DNA of 56,788 nucleotides, counting the filler, from Platydemus manokwari (Eukaryota): the NCBI GenBank assembly GCA_037951405.1. It is 5 parts of 5 records of this genome, joined end to end, with 100 filler letters (N's around TTAATTAATTAA, not from the genome) between each part and the next. Parts side by side here need not be neighbours in the genome. Positions count along the whole stretch, not along the records: positions 1 to 14,649 come from JBBMOY011425866.1; 4 more parts are not named here. One strand, given 5' to 3'. The notes under the pieces were generated by a model. That model did not search any database. It saw only the letters and a list, made by a program, of their open reading frames with translations, and was not told the origin of the DNA. Position numbers and translations under genes: made by a program. Below are positions 2,958-56,788 of the stretch, one piece after another; position 1 is the stretch's first letter; each line of letters starts with the position of its first letter.

Positions 2958-3299
2958 GGGTGTACATACTAATACTGACTATTGAGACAGACCTAAACAA
3001 TATAATAAATTATATAAGATGAAAAAGTCACATTGAAACAGACACTAATATTGTCAATTGGAGGCAGGCTTGAATTTGAACATCTACGCTGTCTATAATC
3101 AGGATTATGATGATTAATTGTTTGTTATATTACTATATGTATAATGGGATTATTTTTATATGATTTGTAGAGCTGCATAATAGAATTATATTATATGATT
3201 TGTGAGGTGTTTGTTTATATTGTAGGATCTATAGGTGCTTTGGGAGTTTTTGGGGTTTTGTAGGGGTGACTCCCAATATTATTTCGGGGCTCGAAAAGC

Positions 3300-3833
3300 C
3301 TCGTCCTTGTGGCTTTGAAACAATTTTCGGGGCTTGCCACGGTTTTTAGCTTTCTCTTTATTCATTTTCAGGATGATTGGCGGGATATGTGCCAATCGGA
3401 TACTACTGTCTATATTCACATCTGATGTGGCATCCCATAACTCCATTGTCGATGTTGCTACCTCTTGTCCTTTTCAACTTTTCTCCCCCCTCCTGTTTTC
3501 GGCGATGGTACTGGTGTCTCCACTTCCAGTTTTATCTCGAAGTCTTCTTCCTCGTCTATCTCCAGGACTTCCTCCTCTTCCGTTTCTTTCTCCATTTACT
3601 CATTTTCTCTTACCCACTCATTGTATTTCTTTATTGTTAAATTCATTTTCTTCGCTTCTTCATGCATTTCTTTCATTTCTTTCTGATCCTGTTGTAACTC
3701 CTCTATTCGTCCTTGTATCGTCTCCACATTGTCCCACTTGTTTTTCATTTCATTTGCTTTCTCCTCAAATTCCCTCATTTTCTCTTTAATTTCTTCTACC
3801 TTACTTTGCATTTCCTTCATTTCTCTCCTCGTC
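3300..3833 (-). pseudogene. Coiled-coil/acidic C-terminal segment of retroelement polyprotein (where integrase would be expected)
   Basis: MKEMQSKVEEIKEKMREFEEKANEMK... heptad-like E/K helix, then an acidic stretch (ETEEEEVLEIDEEEDFE) and a basic RGKPRK patch near 3330. No HHCC or DDE motif. Confidence 0.5.
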
Positions 3834-5160
3834 TTATTTTCCTATTCGGATTCTTCTTATTTCTAATATTGATTTTCCCTCCTTGCATTCTGGTATTCGT
3901 GATAATGAATCTGCATTGGCGTTTGATTTTCCTGATCTGTATACTATTATTATATTATGATCTTGTAGTTTACGTGCCCATTCTATTAACCTGCTCGATG
4001 TATCCCTATGCTTCATAAGGCTCTCTAATGGTTGAAAGTCTATTTTTAATATTATTTTCGTTCCATATATATATATATATTGTCTGAATTCTTTCAATGC
4101 AAATATTATTGCTATACATTTCATTTTTTCCACTCTCTTTAGCGATCTGCTGGCGTAAGCTATTGTGTGATCCGATTCTCCCTCGTCTTGCTGTCCTAAC
4201 ACCGCTCCAAAAGCGTCTCCACTTTCATCGGTCATTATTCTAAACGGCTTCTCCATATTTGGGTATCTTAATATTGGGGCTTGCGTTAGATTTCGTTTTA
4301 ATGTCTCAAAAGCCTGTTGCTGCTCCTTTCCCCATTTTATCCTTAACCGGCTTTCCGTTTTACTGCGTTTTCCTTTTCCTTTTCCTTTTTCCTTTTCAAC
4401 TCCTTCTTTTTTATCTTTTTTATTTCTAATCTGTTTATATTCTTCTGCTGCTTTCTTCACCGGGTCATAAATTGGCATCGCAATACGTGCTTTGGCTCTG
4501 GGAACTTAGCTATTTTTCCTACTTTTGCCGGGTCTGGTGCTATTCCCTTTGTTGATATTATGTGATGGTTTTGCCCATTCACATTTAGTGGATTTTATTT
4601 TTAATCCCGACTTTTTGAGCCTAAAAATACTCTTCCTATATCTACAAAATGGTCGTCAAAGTTTTCGGAATAAACTAATATATCGCCTATGTAAACCATA
4701 GCATGTGGTACATCTGTTAACACCGTATTCATAAGTCGTTGAAACGTTGCTGGTGCTCCTGTTAATCCAAAAGGCACCTTTATATATTCATATAATCCCT
4801 CTCCTAGACAAAAATCTGTTCTTTCTATGTCTTCCTCGGTGACTTTACCTGATTATATCCTTTATTTAAATCTAACTTGGTATAATATTTTGCTCCGTTT
4901 AACTTATCAAATATATCCCTCATATTTGGCAACGGGAATTCATCCTGCTTCGTTTTCTTATTCAACTCCCTGTAATCTACGCATAATCGCACTTCTTTAT
5001 CTTTCTTCTTTACTGGAACCATATACGTTTTATATTGTGACGAACTTTTTCTTATGAATCCAAACGCTTCCATGTGTCGTATCTGCTTTTCTGCTTCTTC
5101 TAATATCTTGTATGGTATTCTTCTGCTTAGTAACTTAATAAGTGTCTCATCTGTTGTATG
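3834..5160 (-). pseudogene. pol: pol remnant: Ty3/Gypsy reverse transcriptase and RNase H
   Basis: RT motifs RRIPY, VKKKDKEVRLCVDYRELNKKT, FPLPNMRDIFDKL, KLDLNKGYNQV and YEYIKVPFGLTGAPATFQRLMN; the catalytic YIDD is mutated to YIGD (4682-4693). RNase H motifs FRIMTDESGDAFGAVLGQ, IAYASRSL and YRSGKSNANADSLSR. Frameshifts and short deletions are present. Confidence 0.95.
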
Positions 5161-5164
5161 ACTT

Positions 5165-6227
5165 CCGTCGTTCAAAATTAATACATTCGCTCTTGATTTC
5201 TTATCCTCCGTAGACACCCATATTCCATCATCCGTTTTAAATACTGAAGACATAACGTTTGAACACACCTCTATTCTCGCGGCTTTGTAATTTTCGCTCA
5301 AGATGATTCTTGTTACTGGTTGTAAAAATTCTTTTTTGCGTTATATATGATTGGCATATCGTTGGTGCAGTATTCATGTTTTTTGACCAATAAGTTGTTT
5401 ACCATTTTACACTGGAAGGTATAAATGACTTCCCCTACTACTCTAGCGAATGTTTTAGTTTCCTTAAATATTTTTCCTTTAATTTCTCTAAATTCCGTCT
5501 TCTTGAGCAACGTTAATGGACATTTGTATGGATTACTCTTGTACATTATTAATGATTCTCCCGAATCACATGCTGAATTGTCATATTCACAATGTGTCCA
5601 TGTAGTCATTTTCCTGGTTTTTGCATCCAAGGTGGTTTGATATTCTTGCAATTCTATAATGTAGTGTCCATATGCCATTTTTTACTACCTTTCCATCTAT
5701 CATGTAGTCACCTCCTTTGCAATATCCTCCATGACTAGACCATCCTTTTTGATTTATTGTATTCGTCCTGGTGATACCACTACTTGTATTCCTTTTGGTA
5801 TTTGATAAATTCCCTTTTCGAATGCAGCTTTACAACTTTCCACTGAAGGTATTTCTAGTACTGTCAGCCATGCTTGTACCAGTGTTACTGTGTATCCTCC
5901 TCTCTTATATGAACAATGGAAAAGCATTTCTTGATATGCAATTTTGCATTCCCTTGCTTTTTCAAACAGAAACTCTGATTCCTGATACACATACATTTCC
6001 TTTGGTTTTAACTGTGTAATATTTACTGGATATGCCTCTGAGCATTGTTCAATATCCAATAGAGAATATTTCTTCCCCCATCGTGGTTTGCTACAATCAT
6101 ATCCACTTATTCCGAAATTTGCTCCCCCTATACTGCTTATTACATATATCGCGAATAGCGTCTGAACTATTGTGGCCAATGTTAACCCTACTCCTAGTAC
6201 TGGTTGTTCACGTTTTGGCTTTTTCAT
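5165..6227 (-). pseudogene. env: Envelope-like glycoprotein, chuvirus G / class III (gB-like) type; internally deleted and C-terminally truncated
   Basis: Hydrophobic signal (VLGVGLTLATIVQTLFAIYVISS), then GYDC..KYSLLDIEQC, YVYQESE..RECKI..FHC and SVESCKAAFEKG. Bridging the frameshifts gives GWSSHGGYCKGGDY, THCEYDNSACDSG, ARVVGEVIYTFQCKMV, CTNDMPIIY, FLQPVTRII and C..VFKTDDGIW. This cysteine/motif order matches my recollection of chuvirus-type glycoproteins (GYDC..SLL...C; AGEV....C.PV; C.NELPV; FL.P.TRIL). Confidence 0.8.
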
Positions 6228-6249
6228 TCCCTTTAATAACGTAGTAACT

Positions 6250-9200
6250 ACTGGAGTCCATCCCCCAACTCCTTTACCATGTCTTCGTATTCATCGTATA
6301 TTATTTCTGCTCCTTCGTCTATGTTTATTACACTCTTATACACGTGATTACTTAATGTTCTCAACGTGACTGCTATTTTTCCCACTGTCTTTTCCCCTTC
6401 ATTTAAAGATTGCATCACTATTTTTAATTCATCCTTGTTATTGCATTGTTGCATTTCTTTTAATGAATTCTTAATTGGTTTTGTTAGATTCTTTAGTATA
6501 TTTACTTGTTCCTGTTCGTTCCATTTAAGCATGCATGGTAACTTGTTTACTGTCTCATCTTTTCCATCTCCTTGTCTCCACTTTTGAGTTTATTCTCCGA
6601 CTGATGCTGAAAGGCTGGTGCACTGGTGCTTGGATTATTATCTTCTACTCTGCTTGAGGATACCCTGACCGGCTCTGGGTTTTTTGCTTTGTTTGTTGAT
6701 CCTACTGGTCTCCCCCTAGGTTTTCGTGTGGATATGCTTTTGTCTTTGGTTTCTGCATTAGTTTGTTGTGCCGTATGTGTTTGTTGGCTTTCATTTAATA
6801 ATTCTTGATCAAAATATTGGAATAGTTCTTCATGATTACCATATCTATCATGATTTACTTCTCCCAGCACTTCCGGCAACTCCTCCTCTTCTTTTCTTGA
6901 TGGCTCTATTATCTCTTTTTCTTGATCACTTATCTCCTCTAATATGACGTCCTCCTCTTCTTCTATTGTTTTACTACACTCTCCTTCCCTATATGGATAT
7001 ACTATTTTCTTCCTCGATACCCCTTCCTGTTTTCTGCTGATACTATTTTTTAGTGCCAGTGACGCTTTTCTTTCTTCTTGTATTTGTTTCATTACATTTT
7101 CTCGTAGTTCCCTTTCCCTGCTGTACTTTTCCTATTTGGGTATTTATGTTTTTGCTTTCCTATGCATCCTAAACACAAATATTTCTTTTCTACTTATTTT
7201 TGTAGTTGATTCTTTGGCACTCTTTCCACCATATTCATTATGCTGTTTTCTTTCTTTGTTCTTAATTCTAGTGCCTTTAGGAAATCCTCATTGGAATTTA
7301 ACTCACTTCATTTAGAGTTTGCTGATTTTGGAGATTTCTCCTCACTACTTTTTGTTACCGGAGTAACTTCTTCTTCATCCAAATCTACCCCTATTATCTG
7401 ATTAGCATTTATATATAGCTCCCTTTTTTCTTTTTCGACCGGTTCTTTATTAAAACTCCTACTTCTACATTTAGACTTCTAAATTGTTTAGAATTATCCG
7501 GTTTAAATGGTATTGTTCTAACAGATCCCTACTTTTCAGTCTCATCCCCTTATTATAAAGAGTAATGCTTAATTTATTGACATGTTCTGTCATTAAAAAG
7601 TTTTGTCTAATATATTCCTTCATTGTTTCCTTCTGAGCTTTCCCTATTTATCATGTTAAATTCTCTTGGCCTCTTCTGGTATTATATCGATGGCTAAACA
7701 TGAATCTCCCTTGTCATTTTTTATGTATTCTCCTATACATTTCCATTCTGCCATCCTTTTGTCCTTAAACCTCAATTTCACCTTTCCTTTTATTTTTTCC
7801 AACTCCCCGGCTAATCCAATATTATCAACTTCCTAATCAGTTGAACTGATGTAGACATATGTAATTCCATGTCTTATTGCATTTGCTCTCCCTCACTATC
7901 TTTTAGGTAAATTTCCTCTTAATCCCGTTACATTTATCGGTGTCTCCTTGAGGAAATTCTCTTTCCCTTTCCTTTAGTTGTTCTCTTTGAGCCTATCTCC
8001 ATAACTCAACTTGTTTCCCTTGCTCATACTGTATTATTAGTTTATTTAATTCATATATAATTTCCTCTGGCATACTTATCCTTCTTAACTTCTCCCGTAT
8101 CCTAATGAATGTCCTTCCACACAGTAAAGGGTTTGGGTAGTATTTTCTCTCCTTAAGTTGTAAATACTTGAATGCTATTACCTCTTGACTCATTTTGATT
8201 GCATCCGTCCTTGTTAGTCCCTTTTTTACTAACTTTTCTTCTCCTTTTTTCTTCTCCTAATATTGATATTATTGCCTGCACCCGCTCCATTTTATCTCTT
8301 GCATCCGGCCTCTTGACGCAACTCATCATATTTACTTCCTTAAACTCCTTTTTTCTTCCTTCCGCCATTCGCTTCTTTTTTTATAATAATACGCACTATA
8401 ATGCGCAATTTCATGCGCACTATTATGCGTTTTATGCGTCATCCCTAAATCACTTAATATTACCTCTTCTGTGACTGGTGCTTCCTTATGCCATGCTTCC
8501 ACTCCGCATTCGGGATGTTCTTCGTTTGGCCAAAAACCTAATGCCCATTGCAATATTTCGCTTATGCTTGTATTTTCATCTACCGTCAGTGCTCCCCCTT
8601 TATTATTTCTTAAATTTCTCTCTTCGTGCATTAATTTTTCACAATGACTTCCTGGATATAACTTTACTATCCCATTTTTTATTATTCCATTTGGATATCT
8701 CTTTGGATTTTTCAGTACCACTATTCTGTATATCTGTCCACGTCTTAACCTCAGGTCTCTTGTCATCATGAGTTGTCTTCCTTGCATAAACATTATTATT
8801 TCATCTTCACCCGACACCCATTCATCTGTCCATCCTGTATATTTATATTTCCATCTCTGCTCCATTAACAATTAGAATTCTAGTACCGTCTCTTTTCCTT
8901 TAGTAGTTATCCACTCATAATGACTATCCTCCTCTTCGCTTACCATTTGGAACTCTATTATCACTTTTCCCTCTGTTCTTCTTATATTTTCTCTTCCCCT
9001 TTCTATATCGTCAAATGCTACTCCTCCTCTGACTGTGATCTTTATTTGTTCCCTATGTCCGTATACTGGTTGTGTTCTTATCTTTATTTGCTCAGCTTTC
9101 CATAACACTGGACATCGTTTAGCTATATCTTTGTATATCTTTTTCATTGAATCATTGAAGTTTATTTCCACATGAATTTGTTTTTTAATTCCATATCTAT

Positions 9201-11100
9201 CTTCTACCAGGATTGCTAATTTGTATTCTCCTTCTTCCGCATCCCTTCCAGGTTTTTCCTTGTCGTCCATTTTATCGTATATTCCTTTGCTTTCTAATAT
9301 TTCCATCATTAATTGTTCTCCCCACGTTTTTTATCCAAATAATCTGTTACTCCTGTATTTACCCATTCCGGATGTGTCACCAGTGTTATATCTCTTCCTC
9401 GTGGTATTGGCAATATCTTGCATTTTCCTATTATCTCCCCTCGTTCTTCCTTTTCATTTATTTTTTATGCCCGTTCTTCCATTATTATTTTACTTTTTGT
9501 CGCTGTTAACTGAATCAATGAGTATTCTGCTCTCTTTCTTAACGTTTTGACTCCTTCTACTATTCGTTGGAATTCAATTGCATTATTTTTCCCGAAAAAC
9601 GGCATTCCTATCCTCAACTTTTGTCCATGTGTTAGCAGTATTTTTAATCTTATTATTACACTTGAAGGTTCTAATTCATTTTCCCGTATGTAATCTTCTG
9701 CACACTCCACTATCTTCCATACCTGAGTATCAAAAGTTCCTTCTGTTTTTTCTCTAATTCTCTTTTCACTTGGTGTTTCATCTATTAATTCTCTAAATAT
9801 ACCTATCAGCGTTTGCACATTAATGTGATCCCTATTATCCTGCGTTAGCTTCATCCACAGCCCGTCTTTGTCTCCATATTTTCACATTCTCGTAGTCTTT
9901 CTACAAACTCGTCTATATTCCGATAGTCAATTTCCCTATTGACTAAATATTGTCCTAGATAATCCAACTTCCCTATTAGTTGTAAAATGCCCTTGCATTG
10001 TTACCAATTTTGATGGGACATATACTGTTTAGGTTCCTGGCACGTTTAATACCTTTGGCAATATTTTTTCAATTATCGGCATTGTTAAAGCTGGTTTTAC
10101 TGGTATTTTTTCTAATATTAGTGCTACTGCTACCTTGTATTTCTTTTTTCGTGTTATCTGGTCTTATTGCACATCTTTTTCTTTTAATTTTGTTACATTA
10201 TCTCTCTCCTTTTTATCCTGTGATTTCTCAGTTTCCAATTCTTGGCTCCTTATGCACCATTTTACTGGTCTCCCTGTCTCCTCTGTGACATCTTATGATT
10301 GGAGATTTGGTTTCTTTTCCCAAATCTCATTGATTTCATCTAGTGAACTGACTCCTTTCATATCCGATTTTGATTCCACTTACAGTATTGTGCTATTTTC
10401 GTCCGCTAATGCCCTGTTCGACACTTCTTCCTCACACTCTTCTTTTTTAATCAACTGCTCTTCTGTCTCCACCAGCTTGAATTCTTCTTTACTTTTATTT
10501 TTAGGTTTTAATGCCGGCAGCATTATCGGGCTTACAAACCAACGTCATAATGGGTTTCCATAATGAACAACTCATCCATTAGGTTCAGCTGCAATTCCTT
10601 CACTGTGGGTAGATTTTCTAATATTTCTATTGACAATTCCACTTTCTCTCTAGCACCTTTCTGCCTCATTGCCTCCATTTCTTGTTCGCTATTAATCATG
10701 CATATGTTGAGAGCTTCATATTCTTCCAAATACAATGTTTCTTGTCCGGGCTTCAAATTGTTCACTGGTGGTTTTAGCATTGGTTTGGTGTGAACTATTG
10801 CATACATATTGTGTCTCATATTGTGAAAAACCTTGATCTATTATATAAGCACTATCCGGTAATTCATCGAACTTAAGAAATATCTACATATTTTTCACTA
10901 TCTTATTATTTTCTTTTTCCATATACTGTGTTACTAATTTCCGTATTTTTCCGACCTTTGCTCATGCATTTCATGTAACTTTTATTTTGTGCTCCTGTGG
11001 CCCCTCCGTTGCCCATATGTTTATCCTCAGCGGTTTTTGCAATGCTGTTTTATGGGGGACTAATCTTCCCCATCGAGCTGCTTGCTCCACCTATTGATAG
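6250..11100 (-). pseudogene. ~4.8 kb of unrecognised retroelement-encoded protein sequence (fragmented ORFs), includes AT-hook RKPRGRP at 6706-6726
   Basis: Abutting minus-strand ORFs 10532-10819, 9465-9854, 8872-9309, 8332-8871, 8153-8368, 7993-8193, 6547-7092 and 6248-6532 share the purine-rich codon bias of gag/pol. Several join by single stops or frameshifts. No family recognised. Confidence 0.6.
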
Positions 11101-11129
11101 GTTAAATCATCTGCCATTAAGACGTGATC

Positions 11130-12960
11130 TTACAGCTTAATTAATATTTCTTTTGCCTGAGATATTTCATCCTTCTCCACTAATTGTACCATCTTATTTA
11201 CTTTCTCCACTATCGTTAATGGTTTGTTTTCCTTATTCTTCTTCTTATTAAAATCTTCATATTCTATATTCATGCACACTACCTTGGGATCGACTACTTC
11301 TGCTAATCGAGTTGATAAATTTGCTAATTCTTTCCTTAACGTCTCCACATCGCTATGCGCCACTGCTTCTATTGCTTTTTGGGATTCTTGTGAATTATTC
11401 TGCCTTTGCCTGCATGTGGTTATGGTGTGTCCAAATTTGTTACAACATTCACACTGGATTCTTTTGTTGCTATTCATCCTGTCTCTCCCATAATTAATAT
11501 ATTTTGTTTGATTGCTGTTATAATTTCTCTTATTGTATCCTTCTGCTGACTGACTTCTGGGTCTATTAGCCCTTTGCATTTCATTATTATAATAATTATT
11601 GTAATTGCCTTTATAGTTCCTCCCTTGATTATCAAAATTTTGACTGTTAAATTGTGCATACTTATTGTTATTCCCCCTGGAAATGCGATTATTCGCTGGG
11701 CTTCTGCTCACATTATCATTATTATTCCTATTTTGACATCCATTTCTATCACCGTTATACCTATTGTCACTATATCTTTGGTAATTTCGCCTATAATTAT
11801 TATTGTTATATCTTCGATATCCATTATCATTGTATCTTCGATCACTTTGTCGATAATTAAATTAAATAATTACTATAATTATTATTCCTATTGTTGTCCT
11901 GATTTCTCGCGTACTCTTTATTAACATTCCACTTCGGGCTATCTTGAAATTGTGTCAAAATTCTACTCAATTCGGACCATTTCACATTCAAATCAGGGTT
12001 TTTTTGTCTTCCTTAGTCACCCTTTGACTCGACTTTGGCGGCGAGCTTAATCGCTCCGGTTCCGCAAATGTTATGGCATTCACCGCAGGGAAACTCATCC
12101 CACAGTGAGGATTTGTAGAAAAACCCATGCCACAAGTTAATTTCAATTGGCGCGCTTTTAATATCAAATCTTCTAATGTTGAGCATTCTGCTATTGCCAG
12201 CGTGCTCTTGAATGCACTGTTAATTCCCCTTTTAAATTGGTCCATAATTATTCTTCTTCTTCCATCTTTTGTGATCAATGTATCATCATATGCCTTTTCC
12301 GCTAACTTGGTCAACTCCATTGCATATTCTTGTTCTCCTTCTCCTGAACGCTGATATCGATCCAAAAATTGTCTGACATAATATTCGAATCCAATACTAT
12401 TCCCTTAATTATATCCTTAAAAGTTACTTCTTTCCCTTGTAAATTTTTATCTGCCTGCATCATCTGTTGATGCTCTTGGAGGGCATAGCCCTTTAAATAT
12501 AGCGGCAACCGCATTATTTTATTATTATTATTCCATCCATAAGCCGTAGCAATCCGCTCGAACTCATCAAAAAAATCGACAAACAATTCTTGCAGACCCT
12601 CAAATGGGGTTATAGGCAAATAAATTAATTTACCGAACTCATTGTTAGACATATTACTATTATTATTATTACTATTATTCTAATTATTACTCTCGTTACT
12701 CATATCTTCGTCTCTATGTATTTCTATATCACTATCAATTATTATTTTTCGTAAACTTAAATCACTATTTTCTTTAGAATTTGAATTACTATCCCCCGAT
12801 TGTGTCGTGTGTTCACTTATATCACCACTTATTTGTATTTCGTTTAGACTATACGTTGATTCAGTATCTATTTTTTCCCTTGCTAACGATTGACTTCTTG
12901 ATAAACTTCGGTTATTATTCGAGTATCTTGTGCCTCTTTTATTAACTTCGCTATATCACT
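11130..12960 (-). pseudogene. gag: gag (capsid-like domain, N/R/Y-rich linker, CCHC zinc knuckle)
   Basis: ITPFEG..FFDEFERIATAYGWNNNNKIMRLPLYLKGYA and QRSGE..EYAMELTKLAEKAY..DQFKRGI are Gypsy capsid signatures. CECCNKFGHTITTC is a CX2CX4HX4C knuckle at 11412-11453. Frameshifted. Confidence 0.9.
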
Positions 12961-14578
12961 TATAAATTCCCTTCTCTTAGACAGTTTGACTGTATTTATT
13001 ATACCAGTATAACAATATATAAAATAATATGTATGATTACGTAATCAATAACTTTCAAAATATAGAATATACAATTTTAGTTCTATCAAGCAAATATTTG
13101 CAAATATTTTAATAAACACTTGATTTATTATCTACTCAATTGATTACTATTACAATCGACTGACTCAATTGATTCAACCCTAATCTGGATTCAATCAATT
13201 CAGCTCACATTAAATTTAATCAATTCAAGCAATTTATTGCTCCTCTTCTCCCTTAGAAATAAGTTCGAGGCACCACTTTTTATTAAATAAAATTTTTGTT
13301 TTTTTTTGTTTTTTCGAGTCGCGCTTGGGGCTTCAACAACCGGTATTGAAGACCGAACTGTTGGAAAATAGTTTAATATTAAGTTGAGAATTGAGCGCAA
13401 AGGAAACTGAGTCATTTTGAGCCTGAAAAGTAATCATATGTGATTACGAAAACCTCTCTCAATGATTATCAGCCAAAATAATAAATGATCTGTTTAAATA
13501 TGTGATGTTATGATTCTCCCTTGATCAGCTTTTATTTGTATCAATAGATTCAATGAATTATATAGAAACCGAACGCGATGATGGGTTTAAAAATATCTAT
13601 TTGAGAAAATTGAGTTGAACAATTATTATGAAAAAGAGCGTAAAGGTATTGGAATAATATCCCGTCCTCGCCTCAGCGATTAACAGGTAATCCATGCAAC
13701 GGACGAAGATATTAAAAAAATGCGGAGAGAGTTATTATCGTTAGCACTTCTAATATAAAACCAACTGTAAAGTTAGAATTAATTATCAATGGTTATAGTA
13801 TTATTATAAATGAGCAAAATATTAGTGATAATTGACTTTATAAACTATTATTAACAGACACAATAATTATTCTAAGTGAGCAATAATGAATAATGAAAAC
13901 AAAACAATAAGGTTAATAATTCTTAATATTAGCTCTTGAATGAAAGTATCTCCCAAATAAAAACTCCTATTTCGATAAATATCCACTTAGCGTCGTTAAA
14001 TTTCCCGCAATTAATCTTTTTTTTCCGGCCAAAAAGTCTCTTCGCTTTAAAGTGCTTCTTCATTTAATACCAAATGCTTCTCTTGATAAGTTGTAATAAT
14101 TCCTTTCTATTCTGTCACAACTTAACTCGTAAATTAATGTGTTTGTTATGGATATTCTTCTATGACCAGCGCCGCTATTTATACGCGCCTGGTCATGTCC
14201 ATTTTTCTCTCACAGCTTTTCATGACGAATTTTCTCACTTAGCTTCCTGTTTAATTTTACTTTGTTTGATTTTTCTCACCGATTTTTCACTTACAGTTCA
14301 TGTTAAATTTTATTTTGATTAATTTTTCTCATCAACTTTCCTTCATATTCCAACTAGATAATTTACCGGCTTTACCTAATTTAACCTTATTATCTATTTT
14401 AATTAATATTTCTTATATTAACTTGCCTTCTTTTAACTTTGGTATTTATTATTAATGTTATTATTTATCTTTATAAGTTATTATCAATTTTATTATTTAT
14501 TATTTTGTTTATTATTGATTTTATTATTTATTATTTATTTAACTATTTTAACCTCTTCGCTTCGTTCATCTCCTCCGT

Positions 14579-14649: not shown

Positions 14650-14749
14650 NNNNNNNNNNNNNNNNNNNNNNNNNNNNNNNNNNNNNNNNNNNNTTAATTA
14701 ATTAANNNNNNNNNNNNNNNNNNNNNNNNNNNNNNNNNNNNNNNNNNNN
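14650..14749. other. Assembly gap with TTAATTAATTAA linker
   Basis: N-run flanking an all-frame-stop linker; same layout at four sites. Confidence 0.98.
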
Positions 14750-19750: not shown

Positions 19751-21800
19751 ATTTTTTCACTTAAGATAATTTTATAATTTAATTTCATATATAATTGCGT
19801 TGTTTGATTTATTCGAATAATTCAGTTAATATCTCATTTTCCAGGATGTTAATTAGGAACAAAAATTATTTTTTAAATCAAATTTTTATTCCAATCACAA
19901 CATTTCTGTGTAATTATTTGACTACAGACATGCTTAATAATATCATTGCTTATTTTTATAAAATTATTGTAAAAATTCAGAGTATCTCTCAATTTTTTTT
20001 AATGTAACAAAGACGTTCACTCTAATTTTCCATAAATTGCAACTTGATATACTTTGATCTTTTTTTATCAAATAATCAAGTTTTTGGTGATTTTTAAGGT
20101 CTAGTGTATTTAATATTTTATTACAAACAACTAAAATTCTTCTTAAATACTTAAATCATAAATTCAAATTTTTTTTAAAGAATATAATTAAATAAACTAA
20201 CTGATTTTTACAATGCACTCAACAAATTTAAAATTTTATTTTTGTCAGCAATTCTTATAATTGTAAGAAACCACTATAATTATCAACATTTAATAATGTC
20301 AAATAGTTAAGAGTCATAATAATAGGAATGGAAATAAATTGATAATTTCTGTTATTTGGAATTTTCGTCATGAAATTTACGATCACATAAATCAAGAGAT
20401 AACCTCGAGCTATAGGCTATTATGGTTACTCTTGAATTTCGAAATGCAATCAATCTAATCCGTTTCATTTTTAATTTCCCAGGCTAGATCATACTTATTT
20501 CAGATATTATCATGCTGAACACCATCAATCTTCGTTACTTAATGTTGCATAGGCTTAATGGAAGATTTATTCTATCAATTCAATTGTATCTCGTATCCTT
20601 TAACAATACCATTTGAAAATTAAATCAAATATTATTAATCTCCATTTCGACGATATCCAGTGAAATGATACTCACGATTTAATGAAATATTATTTAATGA
20701 ATCTTCAGTGGTCATGCAAGGGTTTCAATTTTAATTCGACAAATTGAAATTTTTTCTAATTTCTCATCTTGAGCTTTATTAAAATTTATCTTACTTTAAA
20801 ATAAAATTTATGAAATTCTTCTGAATTTTATCGATTAAATTTAAAATATAATATTTCCATTTTACGAAAGGCTTTTCGTGGAAAATGTAGAAATGATAAT
20901 TTTCTATTGGCCCAGACTCATTGAAAAGGTAATCAATAATTATATATATATATACACCAGGTTTTTGTTTAAATTTCAAGTACTTGTTTTGAATGTTTGT
21001 TTTATAGAGATGCTCCTATCAACATGGTATCAATTTTATCCAGCTTTTTTGAATAAATAAATTATCATAATAATGATCATAAAGCTCAATTTTTACGGGC
21101 ATTTGAGGCACAATGGTAAATTATAGTAAGATTTAAGAAATTTTTTCAACCCATCAGTTAAATACAAATGAAGAAACAGAGTCAAGGTTCTTTGTAATAC
21201 TAATGAAGTACTAGAAAGAACATAAAAGTTGCTCTTGCCTATCAGTTGGGATTGTTATTAGTTCAGACAACGGAAGCTCATAATTATAATACAGTGACCA
21301 TGTTCACAAAATATTGAAAATGTGACAGACAACCGAAGCAAAGAAGTTTGAAATAAAAATGAATTGAGACTGTGGGTAGAAAAAGAAAAAAATTCTAAAA
21401 CAAAATAAGATATTCGTCTTACTACAAATTGGACATCGTTCATCAAAATGTCAAGATAATAATTTTGGTTTGAAATTCCAAATAATGATTTCAAATTTCT
21501 TCAGAATGATTGGGATTGAAGAAATCAATCTCACTTCAACTGGTGGAAATTCACGTGAACTCAAATAATAAACGACAGGAAATCATCAATCTCATTCGTA
21601 ACAGATCCGAAACATTCCACGAATAACTCTTTATTAAATAAAGATACATTTTTGAAACATTGTTCCAATTCAGGCAGAATTCAATCTATTTTTCCTAGTC
21701 AGCATTAATTTAAAATTTATTTAAATTTAATATTAATTTACTAGAAGCATAATGTTTTCCAGGAAATGTATGATTTTATCATAATAATTTTCTATACATA

Positions 21801-22663
21801 CCGTGTGATTCATAACTCTCTGTCTCTTAAACTAAAATAAAACAACAAAACACTATATAATTAATACTCACATATTTATACTCATTGATATTAATTATTA
21901 TTCATTGATTAATGTACTTTATTTATTATTTCTTATTAATCAGTTACATTATTGCAATATGGCGGAAGCAGCTGATGATGTTAAATTTTCGCTTGCTGGG
22001 AGAGAGTTTATAGTTAGCCATGCAATAGTGTACCAGAGTAGTGTCAAAGCTTGCCAAGAATTCCAACAACATTTTAATCGCACACCACCAGCTAGGGCAA
22101 CGGTACAATATCGGAAACAGAAGTTTGAAGACACTGGAAACTTATCCATTAGGTTGCAATCATGAAGACCGTCTGATGAAATCATAAAGGAAAAGGTAGT
22201 AAATTTTGTAAAAGAGAATGATGTCATATATCAATGAGAAACTGCGCGAGTATGAATGACATCACAAATGAAACCTCTCAAATAGTCTTTTAATTAAGCA
22301 TTTGGAGAAGATGATCCCAATAGGAGGGTTGAATTCAGTTCTTGGATAGCCAATGAAAACAATGTCAATTTCCTTAGAAGCATTATTGTCTCAGATGAAG
22401 CTTCGTTTTGTACGAAAACACAATCCATTTTATTACGCTAAAGAGAATAAACATCGTGTGTTATGTGTACCGATTAAATCTCCTTGACTGACCGTTTGGG
22501 GAGCTATGCCGTACGATCTTGGTGTAACATTGAGTATCAGTATTGAAACAATGAACAAAGACCTGTATGTCATTGTTTCAAATCAAAAGTTGTTGCCATT
22601 AATTGGAAATGACAATCGACATTTTATTTCAGTTTTAGAGATGGAAACTTATGAATCACACGG
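21801..22663 (+). mobile_element. Internally deleted Tc1/mariner element with DUF4817-type HTH transposase remnant
   Basis: ~42-bp TIRs with 15 bp perfect (CCGTGTGATTCATAA), TA on both flanks. Transposase fragments: ACQEFQQHFNRTPPARATVQYRKQKFEDTGNL, DDPNRRVEFSSW, IIVSDEASF, LTVWGAM. The rest of the catalytic domain is missing. Confidence 0.88.
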
Positions 22664-24475
22664 TATATATACACATTTAATGTCTTAATTAAATCGTAGA
22701 GAACAGTTTCCAACCAATATTTAATTTTAAGCTGATACACTTTTGTTACATTATTTCTTTTCTTCATTATTCTAGTCTGTTCAGACAATTAATCTCTTTT
22801 GGCTGAGTCACTACAATTATCTCTTTGTGTGCTAATTTATGACCTATGTATATTAGCCATATATTTATTGTGCCTTCGATTCGACATTCGAGCAGTAATG
22901 TAGAGAATACGGTTATGACAAAAGTAGTGATTAATACATTTTGAGTTAATTAAAAGATGCTTTCATCTCCAATTTCTATGAAGGTGATAAATTTTATAGA
23001 TTAATTTATAGATAAAAATTTGTAGATAATGATGTCAGCCTTAACACAGTCTCAATGAACAACGAAAACCCTTTACAAATCAAAGATTTTTTAAAATAAA
23101 ATTAAACTTAGTAGCTCCACTGTCAAAATTGTACACTATGACGATAAATTCTCGAAAAGAGACCGAGTTATAATCCCTTCGTGATTTTTGGGATAACTTA
23201 AATTTCCGAACTCAGCTATGCTCAACAACAATTAAATATGCAAAACGGTATAGGTGGCATTATGAGATTTTACAAAAGAATACTCTTTCTTTGGTTGAAT
23301 TGATATTTTGATCGAATTGAACGAATATTGAAGATTGCTTTTCAACTTCTGGACATACAAAATGATGTCTTCGATTCCATAACACTGACGAGTATCGAAT
23401 AATTTGAACATCTGTAGCTGATTCATGTGGTTAACAAAATTGGGGAGTGTGTACTTATTGATATTGCCAGTTCATTTATAATTGTTATTTCGTCGAGTAA
23501 ATAATGAGAGTAATTATTCAGAAATACTATTCAGTATTTTAATAATAATCATGTTCCAGTTGCCATATAGATTAAGTACGGTTTTTAATCATGTCAATTT
23601 TGTTACCGAATGGGAAGGTGGAAATTATACACGGATGGCTTTCGACTAAATGAAGATTAGATAGATTTGATATAAGGGTGATTTTCTCACGTAATCTTTC
23701 TGAAAGTATTTTCACAAAATTACAAAATTAATTATGACATTTTTATTCATTCGAGATGTCCAGGAATAATCACTTAACACTTATCAATCAATGCGATAAA
23801 ACATTTCATAAAACACAGTCTAACACTTGGTCTTCAGCTGGTATTTGGCATTTTTACATCGATATTTATGCTTGAGACTTGCCTGTAATTTTTGTATCAC
23901 GTTTTGATTTGATCTTTTATTTCTTAAGTTACTTTTGAATATATTGATTTTTTAATACTCGGGATTGATTGTTTTTGATTATTTTCAATAAAAGTATGGA
24001 TGGAATTTGATGACATCTGTGATAATTTATTAACTGTGATGGTCGATATATGGTTTTGTGTTTGACTTCGAGTTATATATAACAATAAAAATTTTTGAAA
24101 ACGAATAAATTTTATTTGATTATCAATGCAATAGGATATACAATAAGTTATACAATAAGTTATACAATAAGATCATTAAAATCCTAACAATTACAAATTA
24201 TCTAAATTGTGTTATCTTTAGACTACGAGATAAAATATTAGATCACCAAAAATGTACTATAAACCAGTTGTAATTTCATTATTGCTACTAGCATAATAAT
24301 TGCTAATTACTGAAGTAGAGCACATAAAATAAACATAATCAATATAAAGTTTCGGCTCAGTATCAAGTAATTTTAATTATTTAATTTCTATATGTTAATC
24401 TCCACATCATTGTAAACACCTTCCACGGTGATAATCACACCAGTGAACATAAACTGTAAATTTAGCAATAATGCA

Positions 24476-31559: not shown

Positions 31560-32596
31560 CTATGTGCTGATCTCCTGCGCGATGTGGACTTTTCTTCTAA
31601 CCACAGAAAACAATAAACAACAATCAAACAATCCAAACAGTTGATGCCGATGCCAATGTGCTTAACATTATTTTATTAACATTGTTTTGTATTATCCTGT
31701 GCGGTGTGCACAGTAAACATTGCATGTTGTTGTTTATAATTTAACTCAAAAAATATTCCATATTTATTGATATTTATATTGGCATTGATGTTTGTTATTT
31801 ATTTCTAAAAAATTGTCTGTCATATGAAAGGTTTTATTATTATGTAAAGGCAGAGAGTTAGAAGAGGAATTGCGGCTAGTAATAAGTAGTAAATATAAAA
31901 AAATCAAGCAATTTAAAATAAATATTGTGATTCCTATAGATAACAGTGTCCACAATTATTGCATGTACAATTCACAATTCAGAATGTACAATAATAGCTG
32001 ATATCAAGAACATATTAAAACCAGGATTACATTACATCAGATGAAAGAACATCACATGTCTAGAATCATAAAAATTTAACATGCTTGATATTCTGCAAGT
32101 TATAACAAAGATAATTAACATAATCTTACTTATACATTGGAAAAATACATACATTTGGCTACAAATTTTCTAAACACCTCGAATCTTTTCCACATATTTT
32201 AGTTCTATATCTACTGGTAAGCAGACCTTGAAATTCACAAGTTACCATTGTCCCATGTTGAGTTGTATTCATGTTGTTTATATTCTCCACTGATAGTACT
32301 GAAGGGGTACCAATTTAATTTATCATAAACTCGTTTGGCGAAATGTGTTGATTGATGAGTATATACTATCAAGTGTTCCACTGGATGATATTTCTTATTG
32401 GCTTGTACTCATTGATAGTATATTATTCCTAACATTGACTCCAAAATCTGCCCAAGTCTTAAATGGATTTGGGATATCCATAGCGCAATTAGATTTCTCT
32501 TTAGCCACCTCATCGAAATATATGCAGGTATTTATACCTTCACATTATTTATACCATATGTAACAGAAAGATAATAGCACTAAACAACGAATGCAT
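31560..32596 (-). pseudogene. Possible decayed Cys-rich secreted/type-I membrane protein gene
   Basis: Fragmented frames give a signal-like MHSLFSAIIFLLH, Cys-rich pieces (TCEFQG..KICGKDSRC; CNPGF; NCTCNNCGHC) and a hydrophobic LSTLASASTVWIV.LLFIVFCG segment. Many stops. Confidence 0.25.
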
Positions 32597-32956
32597 AAAT
32601 CTAAACCAGGAACATCAAGATATGAATATAAAAGGAATTATTACAAAAGTGTCTTAACAGGGTTCTTCATATAGTTTGATGGGGGTTTATTCATCATACG
32701 TCTCTTTAAATTTCGGTACTCAAATTTTGTCGATTTGGTTCTGTGTGATTCTTTCAAATTTAGATCATATTAAAATTTTAATGAAATCATAAGTGTTTGC
32801 ATTGTAATTCTGAAATCGATTCCTATAGATAACAGTGTCCATAATTATTGCTTGTACAATTCACAATTCAGAATGTACAATAATAGCTGATATCAAGAAC
32901 ATATTAAAACCAGGATTACATTACATCAGATGAAAGAACATCACATGTCTAGAATC
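31929..32956 (+). repeat. Direct duplication of 139 bp (31929-32067 and 32818-32956)
   Basis: The two copies differ at 2 positions; offset 889 bp. Confidence 0.95.
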
Positions 32957-34337
32957 GGGAATTTTTATATGCTTAGTGTTACGGTGTTCAAACTGAAGAA
33001 TCCAAACATTGATTAATTTTTATAAATATTATTTTTATAAAATCATCAACGATTAATATAAATGGATGTTCTCTACATTTATCAAGCGAAGTTCAAATAT
33101 CTTAAGTACTCTTTTAACTCTCCTGTGGAGCTTATTAACGAAATCTTCCAGAAGTTGTGACAAAACTCTTACGTTTCGTGTATAATTATGCTACAAATTA
33201 GCATTGTAATATTTGTGTTTTCATTATATTTAAAAATGAACTTCTTTGTATCGACATTTGGTTTTCAAATTACAACAAAGCGACCTAAGTTGTCATTCCA
33301 TTTGGATAAAAAGTTTTATTATTGTTGTCATTGAACCACCTTTTTGGTAAGTGTAAAATGTGATTAAACTTCATTATTAACGAGATTGATAAATCTACAT
33401 TTGATTCGATACTAATTTTAAACACAATTACAATAAGAAAATTTTGGAAAGTATTAACCGATAATATACATGTATGATTAAAGTTAGTTCATTATCCGAC
33501 ACATTTCACTTTGTCTTCACACATGCGATTGAACGATCGAGGCGAAGAAAGATAAAAAAAAAATAAGTTTAGTTACTGTCCGTGGATCATTATAACTCTA
33601 AAGACTGATATAAGCCGTAGGTGGTGTTAAGAAATGAAATCAATTCAGCAAAATATTTAAACAAAATATGATACCAATTGATCCCAAAAGTAACATATAA
33701 AAATGGTAGTCATTAAAACCTCTATTTATATGGCTAAGATTTTATTCATATGGTATTCACATTTTGTATACAATATGCACATTTTGATAACCAATCCTGT
33801 GTTCGAGATTGTCTTTTTATTTTGATTCTTTATCCACGAGTGTTTAATTATATTATATTCTTCTTTCTCTGTTTTCTTTTTGTATTTAGGTTCTGAATCT
33901 GTTGGTAAATTTTATTTTTACTTTTAAATTGCTTCTGATTTTGATCCTAATGAATTAAAATCTCTTAAAGAGGTTGTTTTTCAAGACTGAAACTTAGATA
34001 TTATTAGTGTGAGACTCCAGGAACTTTAACGGTCAGAGTATCAGTTTTATTAATCATTCGTGTAGCATTGATTATATACCAGTTTCTAGTTAGTTCTTAA
34101 TCACGAAGAGCCAAAACATTTGAAAGAAGTTTTTTGATTTTTTAATAATAATAATTTTAAAGTGCTCTTCTCAGTTTAATGAAGACAAAGATATTTTAAA
34201 AACAAATATTAAAATATTTATCTTTAAATAACTGGAATTAAAATGTTACAAATCTACAAAACTACTTCATATGTTTTAATGAATTAAATATTTAAATATC
34301 AGAGCTTGCTTAATAATTCTTTTTATCAAAAATCAAC

Positions 34338-53242: not shown

Positions 53243-54342
53243 TTAGAATTGATATACTTTAACACTTTCATCTTCGGAAGTACTTGAAAATTCAGATGAT
53301 TCAGAAGAAGAAGGAATCCTTTTAGATGGCAGTGAATTGCATTTTTGAAGATATTCTTTCTTTGTTATTATCTGTTTATTGAATAAGGGTTTGTAACTTG
53401 GCGGATTTGATACTTTTGTTAAAGATTGTGAATTCGATTCTTTGGGAGTTTGGGAATCAGATGATGAACTAGTTGATGAAACTGTTTCATTTTGTGGATT
53501 AGAAACTGTGACTGGGGTCGGCTGAACTTTTATATTTGGTTTTCGTATAGGAGGCTTAAATGACGAAATTGTAATCAAAGAACTTGAACCATCTGGAGAA
53601 GCACAATGAGGTCGAGTCCTTTTTTCTTTTAAAACAGGTCTTTCAAGATAACTGCTGTCTGTTGTAACCGAATTCATAGAAGGTTCTCTTTGTAGGGGCT
53701 TTTTTAGATTTTTCGTATTATCCAAATCACCATAGTTAAGATTTATAGGTTCCGGTGAAGACTTCTTTCTTAGTTGTTTTTTCTTTACTTCGTTTGATTT
53801 ATTGACAACCGGTTCCTTTTTAAGGCTTGTTGTTGAAAGTGAAGTTATGAAGTCTGGTAAAGACTTATATTTCGTACGAATCTCTTCAGCATTATAATCT
53901 GAACTATAATCATTAACTAATGAATCCATGGATCCAAATTCTTGATCTGATGATACATATGGAATAGAATTAACAGGACTTAGATAAGATGGAACAGGTC
54001 GTGGTCTATTTGTCAATGGTCCAAAAAGTTTTCGTTTCATGAAACTATCTGTGTTTTTAATGACTGAAATGTGATCTTTGTCAATCTTGTATCTTTTAGG
54101 AGGCTTCTTTAATTTAATAGAATTAATCGGTGATTGCCTAGACCATTTTTCTGTGTACTCGTGGTAACGGGTTTCTATGATATCTCCAGATGAACCAGCC
54201 AGGCTTTGATTTATCGGTGTCAGATCAATTTTACCTAATTTACTTTCGAGACTTTTGGATTTTTCCCTGATTGGAATATTTTTGTTTATATTGATTGTAG
54301 GTAGAGTTTGATAACTACGCGACGCAATATTTTTATTCTTAT
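53243..54342 (-). CDS. Large exon (~365 codons) of unidentified Ser/Pro/Lys-rich, probably disordered host protein
   Basis: The frame is open from a TTTTTTAG acceptor (exon start 54342) through the annotated ORF to TAA at 53243, or to a GT donor just before it. No domain recognised. Confidence 0.75.
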
Positions 54343-56345
54343 CTAAAAAATGATAATTACAAAAAAATTTTAAAAAAATTTTAAGAAATTTTTAAAAATA
54401 GTTTTCATCTTTAAGATATTTTAAATTTTTTTAAAAAAAGATTATCAGGCATTAACGGGGTCCAATTATAGATTGTATAAAAGAAGCCGCTTTGTCTCTA
54501 TGACTGAAAGTTTAAATAATTCCTTGTATTGTTTCTTTTGGTTGTCAATCAACAATCAAATTAAGAAAAGAAAAATACGGTAATGTTTCTCATTTACCAA
54601 ACAAATTAGAATAATGCAATCTCAAGAAATGGTGAAATATTTATAAAGAAAATGTTTTCTATAACTTCGGTTCTACATTGACGCATTCCTAAGATATTTC
54701 TCCTACTAAAATATCTAGAATTTATGAAAAGGTTATTCCATATATTGGTATTCAAAAAATATCATCTATTATTAAATGCTATACTTAAAAAATAATATTA
54801 GAAATGTAAAACATTCTTAAATTACTTCAACTCATGATATATGATAATAATATTTTAGAATTTTGCACTTGGAATTTTTTCAATGACTGTATTTTAGAAA
54901 TTAAAATAATGTAATAGAAAGATAAATGTACCCCCCTTAATGAATACTATTATTTTAAATGATGCCATAAAAATGAAAACAATATCACAATTTGAAAGAT
55001 ATTAAAAGATCTTTTAAACTTGTCGACAATGTAAGATCTATTGATTGTTTGTGACGTTGTTTAAGGAATTCTTTGAGAAAATCCAATTTCGATAATGTTG
55101 AAAACTTCTATAAAGACAAGTGAAGGAAACAACTGTTTTTGCTGTAGAATCGATATCAAATTTTTAAGAAAATTATCTTCAAATATCTTTCTTATTTCAA
55201 ATATTCTAATTATTTGAGAAAAAATTGAAAGTAAGGTTGTTATAATTCTATTATAAAAACTGTGCTGTGCGAAAAAGTACATATTGAATTATTATATCAC
55301 ATCCCAAGATCTAGCAACACATGTGGTGATATCAATAATTTTCACAGGGAGTGATCGTCATTGGTAATGAAAAAGCAATATCAAATTATATTCTCAATTT
55401 TTTCTGAAATGACATCAAAGCGTGTTTATAAATTCAAATATCGTTGTGAATTTAATCTATAAATAAACAAGAGCGAATCGTATTTCATAAGGCATTTGTT
55501 GCAAGACAATTTATGCTCGTTGATAAATTTATGCGCATATTTCTACCCGTTTTAGTAGATATCGATGGAACTCATTGATTATCTCGCGACATAATGATGT
55601 TGTCAAATATTTATTGATCAAACTTAACTTCACGAATTTCATTTCTGATTTTGATTGTTTTCATCCAAGACTCGATACAAACAATTGTTATATTAATATC
55701 TCAGTATTAATTGATATTTTATGAATATATTTGCATTCTCTAATGTCAATTTTTTGAGTTTAATAAAATGTTTAAAATTTAATTTTCGGTACAATTTAAT
55801 TTTTGTAAGACAGAGCTAGATTTTTTCTAAATTAGCAGATAAAAACTTTTAAGTTTGATTTTATGAAATTTCAATTAAATCATCAGTACAAGTTCTTTAA
55901 ATAAATTCCATTTCAACATAGGCTAATTAATTTTTGATTGTTCATTCAATTGTTTAAAGCAAAGCATTTTAAATATGAATAATTTTAATTTATAATTTGA
56001 AATTAAATTTCAATATTAAATAATATTATGCTATTTAATTTTAATTATATTTAAAAACTAATTAATTAATAAAAATAATTTATCATTTATATAAGGTAAT
56101 ATAAGCAATTTTGAAAGTGAAAATGCTTTAATTTATAGTTTTTTCCAAATTTTGTTCTTTCTACACTAGTGCTGTCAATTATGTCAAAAATCACATAAAC
56201 ATACAAAATGATCTATCAATTTACAATTTATCTCAAATATCAAAGGCATTTCCTATAATCTCATTAAACAAATCTAATTTAATACTTCATTTTATAATTG
56301 TGGATTTTGTCATATCAGATCAATTCATTCAAATTAAAATGTTAT

Positions 56346-56788
56346 GGCTAAAGTTATAAAAAGAGTGCTAAAATAAAATTTTAAAATTATTCAGTGTATT
56401 GCAAAATTCTGTATAGTTTATTTAATTATATTCTTAAAAATCATTCTGAATTTTTTACTTAAGCACTTAAGAAGAATTTGAATTGTTTTAAATTAAATAT
56501 TAAATACACTAGAGCTTCAAAGTTTATTAAAATTTTATTTTCTGAGAAGTGGATTGAAGTATATCGAATTGTAATTTATTGAAAATTAGCGAGGACCTCT
56601 TTTTTAACATTAGAAGCAATTGGTATGATATCTAAAATTTTTATAGTTATTTTTTAAATAAGTGACTTCGAAATTATTGAGAAGTGCCAGGTACAAAATA
56701 CTTGATTTTTTTCTCAAAATAAGTATTTTAATATCTATTTAATAGATTGGATACATAGATCCAAAACCTGTCGATGTTGTAATGAAAT
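56346..56788 (+). mobile_element. Second, diverged Merlin copy (5' terminus and transposase N-terminus), cut by window edge
   Basis: Terminus GGCTAAAGTTATAAAAAGAG. 56567-56615 matches the reverse complement of ~45000-45050, and GATCCAAAACCTGTC is shared with 44862-44876. GT-AG intron 56691-56745 sits at the position equivalent to 44881-44922, followed by SKTCRCCNE. Confidence 0.75.

Follow-up and report, generated by a model that had tools for sequence, protein, structure and literature searches.

Positions 5165 to 6227 of a 56,788-nucleotide stretch of Platydemus manokwari DNA (assembly GCA_037951405.1; the whole stretch is referred to below as the window) carry the remains of a gene resembling those of viral envelope glycoproteins. 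The locus raises the question of whether this gene is a native part of the retroelement in which it lies and, if so, whether that element represents a new lineage or a further member of a known one. The evidence set out below indicates that it is very probably the broken env of a decayed Ty3/gypsy element (gag, cargo, env, RT and RNase H), likely a member of the Burro type, a membership for which the named Burro and Schmidtea sequences were compared by eye, outside the alignments and trees.

The envelope gene and its relatives

The original prediction identified the glycoprotein from a series of ordered motif blocks, and all eight were located in the predicted order on the minus strand: GYDC at 6104, SLLDIEQC at 6065, ECKI at 5951, FHC at 5921, GGYCKGGDY at 5730, GEVIYTFQC at 5435, CTNDMPI at 5369 and FLQPVTRII at 5328. 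The motifs span 6104-5302 in two reading frames, with three frameshifts near 5755, 5683 and 5330. The Pfam family PF24664 (Monjiviricetes_fusion) matches 5757-6290 with an E-value of 5.4e-10, above its curated cut-off; the same scan covered 19 further pieces, and besides env only RT and RNase H exceeded their cut-offs. A family profile of length 678, built from 13 full-length relatives, matches the first env block with an E-value of 1.1e-49, the env of the window covering only profile positions 9-250 and 390-476. Twelve of the 14 family-conserved cysteines are present, and the two missing ones fall in a deleted block. The description of a signal-peptide-led, cysteine-rich glycoprotein holds with regard to the cysteines, but the leader (approximately 6194-6138) is an internal segment of a polyprotein rather than the start of a separate gene, as it is in the relatives, where the same segment precedes the YDC motif. 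The env lies upstream of pol, whereas the usual place of env is downstream.

Searches of the PDB by sequence, with the env piece and with the env profile, returned nothing under an E-value of 0.6. An atlas search with 5757-6227 gave no usable match, and a word-index search with the env piece among longer proteins gave no match, which is weak evidence. Among 1.84 billion proteins, 59 relatives of the env were found at E-values of 0.001 or below, the best at 3.5e-43, and identity to the best 15 matches is 24-41%. PF24664 is carried by 22 of the 23 relatives scanned (E-values from 1e-62 to 1e-101). In the relatives the ectodomain is preceded by one hydrophobic helix and followed by one or two.

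The fold was modelled on the full-length relative P0126 as a stand-in for the env of the window (32-row alignment, pLDDT 75, pTM 0.49). The model has a gB-like fold with a long central helix at residues 444-491. Herpesvirus gB accounted for all 34 of the PDB matches listed, with a best E-value of 1.2e-13 and a low global TM of approximately 0.27. Amongst predicted viral structures the best match was the glycoprotein of Tacheng tick virus 4 (E 6.6e-40), which we take to be a chuvirus, and the other top viral structures are named as chu-related or chu-like. The structural comparison with herpes gB and chu-like glycoproteins thus bears out, through a relative, the class III-like character that had been proposed.

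Several further features of the relatives were observed. Aspartic-protease-like repeats occur in P0184, P0121 and P0124, with up to six stretches in P0184 (4,844 residues). Between its env and RT, P0184 also has a C2H2 finger as well as ankyrin repeats, the latter being listed for Burro too. Long extensions with further hydrophobic helices follow the integrase in P0180, P0183, P0184, P0124 and P0132, with an Ig-like match in P0183, and these extensions may constitute a further membrane protein encoded in the same frame. Two relatives, P0004 and P0132, are filed under bacterial bins (Turicibacter and Flavobacteriaceae), and are likely animal DNA binned into bacterial genomes.

Organisation of the element

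The element forms a block, from approximately 13,000 to 3,250, which is purine-rich on the minus strand and has a GC content of 0.357, against 0.264 in the flanks; its composition is uniform throughout. The 26% GC of the flanks is consistent with the A/T content of more than 70% given for planarian genomes in the available text of PMC11410931. The relative P0180 is colinear with the window, with gag, knuckle, both env blocks, RT and RNase H in the same order. The following features were assigned.

3250..13275, minus strand: whole decayed Ty3/gypsy element, ends approximate, in the likely Burro-type order gag - cargo - env - RT - RNase H
13264..13275, minus strand: weak candidate primer-binding site, 10/12 match to a tRNA end taken from the supplement of PMC13524379
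12146..12622, minus strand: Gag capsid domain with one frameshift (relatives-only profile, E 3.4e-13 and 1.4e-13)
11412..11453, minus strand: CCHC zinc knuckle, 3' of an Asn/Arg-rich stretch (motif at 11453)
10799..11260, minus strand: helical and likely ubiquitin-like module with three stops (relatives-only profile)
6800..10790, minus strand: broken coding pieces without assigned identity, approximately 4 kb (strand and composition match the element)
6706..6726, minus strand: basic motif, presumably AT-hook-like (motif position)
6250..6589, minus strand: likely Bcl-2-like domain, with a frameshift near its BH2-like end (profile tiles, relatives)
6138..6194, minus strand: hydrophobic leader of env, an internal signal or anchor (Kyte-Doolittle 1.91)
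5456..6173, minus strand: first block of the gB/chuvirus-G-like env, with two frameshifts (profile 9-250)
5196..5456, minus strand: env, second block (profile 390-476), one frameshift
4477..5175, minus strand: reverse transcriptase with two frameshifts (PF00078 and RT profile)
3888..4334, minus strand: RNase H-like domain (PF17919 E 1.8e-26, PF17917 E 6.8e-23)
3480..3880, minus strand: coiled-coil and acidic tail (only composition-driven Pfam matches below cut-off)

The Ty3/gypsy assignment follows from the RT and RNase H matches (PF00078, PF17919 and PF17917) together with the tree described below. The gag region is also matched by P0127, P0128, P0156 and P0180 in tblastn, and the zinc knuckle aligns with the knuckles of P0180, P0121, P0128, P0141 and P0156. 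A basic motif like that at 6706..6726 likewise precedes env in P0121, P0123, P0124, P0127 and P0180. The primer-site motif, which was picked post hoc, has its sole match in the window at this position, yet 13 of 100 shuffles yield one. A lysine-rich insertion 5' of RNase H (4380-4450, minus strand) is shared, among the sequences viewed, only with the nearest relative, P0001.

The relatives contain protease, RT, RNase H and integrase in that order. A profile of 60 integrase sequences found no match anywhere in the window, and a profile search found no protease in the element. An integrase considered at approximately 10.9 kb was dismissed, since the 60-sequence profile was blank there and the stretch fits the ubiquitin-like module instead. 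A repeat search detected no long direct repeat pair that could represent LTRs at the element ends; there is a sequence gap at 14650.

Cargo between gag and env

Downstream of the zinc knuckle, the profile of the ubiquitin-like module matches 11039-10799 (E 9e-7 over 570 tiles), with a weaker helical part at 11260-11113. The label of ubiquitin is based on a PF00240 match in P0127 (E 0.031) and on the annotation published for Burro (available text of PMC6431247). A second candidate for such a module, at 9228-9117, scores 4.2 bits only.

The knuckle and env are separated by 1,769 codons in the window, compared with approximately 220 to 930 residues in six relatives. Between 6800 and 10790 the open pieces are of 87-194 codons, and they have no Pfam, protein, atlas or PDB match. 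Within this region a PDB sequence search with a cargo piece gave nothing under an E-value of 0.6, an atlas search with 8335-8871 gave no usable match, and a word-index search with 8335-9330 among longer proteins gave no match, again weak evidence. MATH, BIR and ankyrin domains had no match in the window.

Directly 5' of the env leader, eight relatives have a helical domain with a W-x(4)-GGW-type motif at its end. The Pfam Bcl-2 family matched this domain in all four relatives given to it, with E-values of 7.7e-5 to 0.012, all below cut-off, and did not match the window piece. A Bcl-2-like domain was recorded in seven of the 20 relatives with at least 100 residues before env, the same seven from which the profile was built. 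With that profile the window part is the top of 570 tiles and lies in the expected place, at 8.8 bits, a score equalled by five of 2000 shuffles; unjoined, it has an iE of 0.56. When two window rows were added to the seven relatives, the resulting profile returned only Bcl-xL and A1 among the 60 matches listed (best E 2.5e-5). A model of the domain from P0147 gave Bcl-2-family proteins as all 38 of the Foldseek matches listed, none at an E-value of 0.001 or below, and in a wide fold search its top Z was 7.5, with none at 8 or above. From its sequence, the window likely displays the Burro-type order, with a ubiquitin-like and then a Bcl-2-like domain before env, the Bcl-2-like part being weak. 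On Bcl-2-like cargo in such elements nothing beyond PMC6431247 was found among the matches listed in searches of papers outside subscription.

Linkage of the envelope to the element

The association between env and the gypsy element was approached from pol as well as from env. A search with RNase H, which is blind to env, gave 180 matches, the best 120 of which are all gypsy-type pol proteins by their domains. The fifth match, P0005, is a single frame running from env through protease, RT and RNase H to integrase. The third, P0003, has as its cluster mate P0180 (3,735 residues), a gag-to-integrase frame with env in the middle. A single gag-env-pol frame is thus present in relatives such as P0180 and P0156, whilst the window copy is broken. 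Among the 65 env-bearing proteins collected, RT is present in 11 of the 13 having at least 500 residues after env, and a gag domain in seven of the 20 having at least 100 residues before it.

In a tree of RT and RNase H, made by a quick method from 107 rows after 23 short or overlong rows were dropped, the window falls in a clade of 15 rows (SH-aLRT 95) which contains all nine env-bearing rows of the 107. It was the env search that brought in most of these nine, and in other rows an env encoded in a separate frame would go undetected. The clade has five other rows, two of which are parts of env-bearing proteins and three of which are fragments starting inside RT. In the env tree, for which 42 of the 65 proteins were kept, the window lies among element-type envs, its inner place being weakly supported; it is separated (100/99) from three stand-alone proteins, taken to be viral, whose PF24664 scores are very high. 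This tree repeats the main RT groups. No locus was detected in viral contigs scanned with P0005, and of the 11 distant gypsy loci recovered in a metagenome scan none had an env.

The placement of the glycoprotein inside a Gypsy element by the original prediction is upheld by the in-frame env of the relatives, by colinearity with P0180 and by the position of the window RT with all nine env-bearing rows, to which the place of the window env among element-type envs corresponds. The gypsy element in the window has its gB-type env placed after gag and before pol, and the data support the view that this env is of class III (chuvirus-G/gB-like) and a native part of the Ty3/gypsy element.

Decay of the window copy

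Two blocks are missing from env. The first gap, of approximately 140 residues, corresponds to the region of the long central helix (residues 444-491 of the P0126 model) and to two conserved cysteines. The second, of approximately 690 residues in P0180 numbering, takes out what remains of the ectodomain together with the membrane helices and the region of the protease, so that the C-terminal membrane anchor present in relatives is absent and the last env piece is fused in frame to RT at approximately 5195-5175. The RT catalytic motif reads YIGD, at 4693; this altered motif and the in-frame stops are signs of decay. The window copy is unable to make a fusogen or to transpose. It probably lost its env blocks by deletion, either while being copied or later, after which stops and frameshifts accumulated.

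An alternative account of the two in-frame gaps is that they reflect an assembly join of repeat copies, or the copying of a non-autonomous RNA that had been spliced or carried an internal deletion. The window reads as a gapped draft, with four gap pairs, and both env junctions keep frame, which would occur by chance approximately one time in nine. However, the stops and the altered catalytic motif represent real decay, and of the words sampled from 3300-13200 a fraction of 0.70 occurs in one run, from which the assembly itself may derive. This account is considered unlikely, and it alters only how the copy broke, not the identity of the family.

Comparison with known elements

The original prediction started from the premise that gB-like captures are found mainly in BEL/Pao elements. 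This is out of date. The available text of PMC13524379 describes 1,512 intact Ty3/gypsy elements bearing an env, among which the gB-type is as common as the F-type, and also 114 gypsy elements found with a mosquito BEL/Pao chuvirus-like glycoprotein as bait. GAG-ENV-POL elements are described there in Nematoda, Bryozoa and Platyhelminthes, and do not form one clade. The mosquito BEL/Pao element Anakin has an env of the same broad fusogen family, but its BEL/Pao pol and arthropod hosts are unlike the Ty3/gypsy element of the window.

The closest published organisation is that of the giant gypsy-like elements Burro/GYPSM1 of planarians, for which PMC6431247 gives, in its available text, a frame of Gag, ubiquitin/SUMO-like, BCL2-like, env, protease, RT, RNase H and integrase, the env matching mononegavirus fusion proteins. 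Like the window, Burro has a Gag with CCHC knuckles and an env before pol, its ubiquitin/SUMO-like and BCL2-like cargo having a likely counterpart in the window, and decaying copies with stops and frameshifts are described for it too. There are also differences. The window copy is approximately 10 kb long, in contrast to 25-30 kb for Burro, and is without LTRs, protease, the dUTPase-like part and integrase. One knuckle was seen in the window compared with two or three in Burro; and MATH, BIR and ankyrin domains, which Burro1 carries, were not detected, whilst approximately 4 kb of extra unmatched cargo is present. Since this gag-env-pol layout has already been published for Burro, the window element is likely a new but dead member.

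Smed_errantivirus_1-6 (Platyhelminthes C1a in PMC13524379) resemble the window in having a Ty3/gypsy RT and a gB-type env before pol, although they are intact, at 1 to 215 copies, whilst the window copy is broken. Compared by eye, the six Schmidtea envs and that of the window have env motifs and a cysteine pattern in common, Smed_errantivirus_3 being the closest (23/42 and 14/24 identical residues in two blocks). The VYQE motif of the window occurs in five of the 230 rows of supplement 2 of the same paper, all from Schmidtea, in an alignment whose gaps can hide motifs. The main text of that paper makes no mention of Bcl-2 or ubiquitin cargo. Nematode non-canonical ERVs (Sacco 2022, as cited in PMC13524379) share with the window a flipped env/pol order in a gypsy-type element, but 18 nematode env rows from the supplement are unlike the window env by eye and VYQE is in none of them. 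Bryozoan and branchiopod env rows, likewise compared by eye, are also unlike it.

These comparisons bear on the idea of an independent capture of a chuvirus-like glycoprotein by a separate gypsy lineage. The scattered phylogeny of GAG-ENV-POL elements (PMC13524379, available text), the modest identity of the best 15 env matches and the chu-like glycoproteins found as nearest viral folds all favour such an event. The window env nevertheless nests with element-borne envs, apart from the three stand-alone PF24664 proteins (100/99), it has motifs in common with the six published Schmidtea envs, and its cargo order is likely the same as that of Burro, which together make a separate capture improbable. 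The original prediction was sound in recognising a class III-like fusogen, given the PF24664 match and the gB/chuvirus-G-like fold of a relative; its claims of an independent capture and a new lineage are not supported, as gypsy elements with gB-type env are widespread and the Burro order is published (PMC13524379 and PMC6431247, available text). That a gypsy element without an env received a fragment of a chuvirus glycoprotein by chance insertion is a highly improbable reading and one largely refuted by the single-frame relatives, for although chuvirus glycoprotein fossils often lie beside gypsy fragments (PMC10084718, available text) and the window copy is without the protease expected to link env to RT, relatives found by RNase H alone have the same env in frame, the window is colinear with P0180 across gag, cargo, env and RT, and composition is uniform across the block.

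Other features of the window

A host gene with short introns, of the Trm10-type tRNA methyltransferase, lies at 1050-2360 on the plus strand (PF01746 E 2.5e-7 on 1866-2045) and ends approximately 900 bases from the 3' end of the element. At 21776-22688, a short frame with a helix-turn-helix match (DUF4817 E 0.0026) lies between inverted arms that are 67 bases long and 79% complementary; this is likely a decayed DNA transposon. A direct repeat of 150 bases (95%) is found at 31929-32078 and 32818-32967, and a dispersed inverted repeat (79-84%) at 20065-20242 and 56370-56548. A serine-rich open frame of 382 codons, without a Pfam match, at 53243-54391 on the minus strand is likely a host exon.

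Implications for the family

The Burro-type family, of which the window element is likely a member, invites a model for how a working copy might operate. One long polyprotein would be made, with Gag and the cargo domains remaining in the cytosol. The hydrophobic leader would thread the class III fusogen into the ER lumen, and the later membrane helices would bring protease, RT and integrase back to the cytosolic side. Cutting by host signal peptidase and the element proteases would then free the parts of the polyprotein, so that, it is proposed, capsids would bud at fusogen-bearing membranes and could make their way into other cells. With the leader retained as its tail anchor, the Bcl-2-like domain would delay the death of the producing cell. 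It is plausible that intact gB-type relatives form such putative transmissible particles.

One may also consider, if only tentatively and with some doubt, that the Burro-type family is much wider than the few planarian examples, and that in it a Bcl-2 fold is joined directly to the env leader, which would serve both as the env signal and as the tail anchor of the Gag-ubiquitin-like-Bcl-2 product.

Taken alone, the locus carries little weight, for this copy is dead and elements of its kind have been described. Greater interest attaches to the family, since the available text of PMC13524379 states that membrane fusion and particle formation have as yet been shown for no gB-type retroelement env, whilst that of PMC6431247 calls the role of the apoptosis-type cargo of Burro worthy of testing. 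In at least eight relatives a Bcl-2-like domain immediately precedes the env leader, which provides a concrete and testable model of topology. If this model is true, these would be enveloped retroelements that anchor their capsid precursor and block host cell death with one and the same module.
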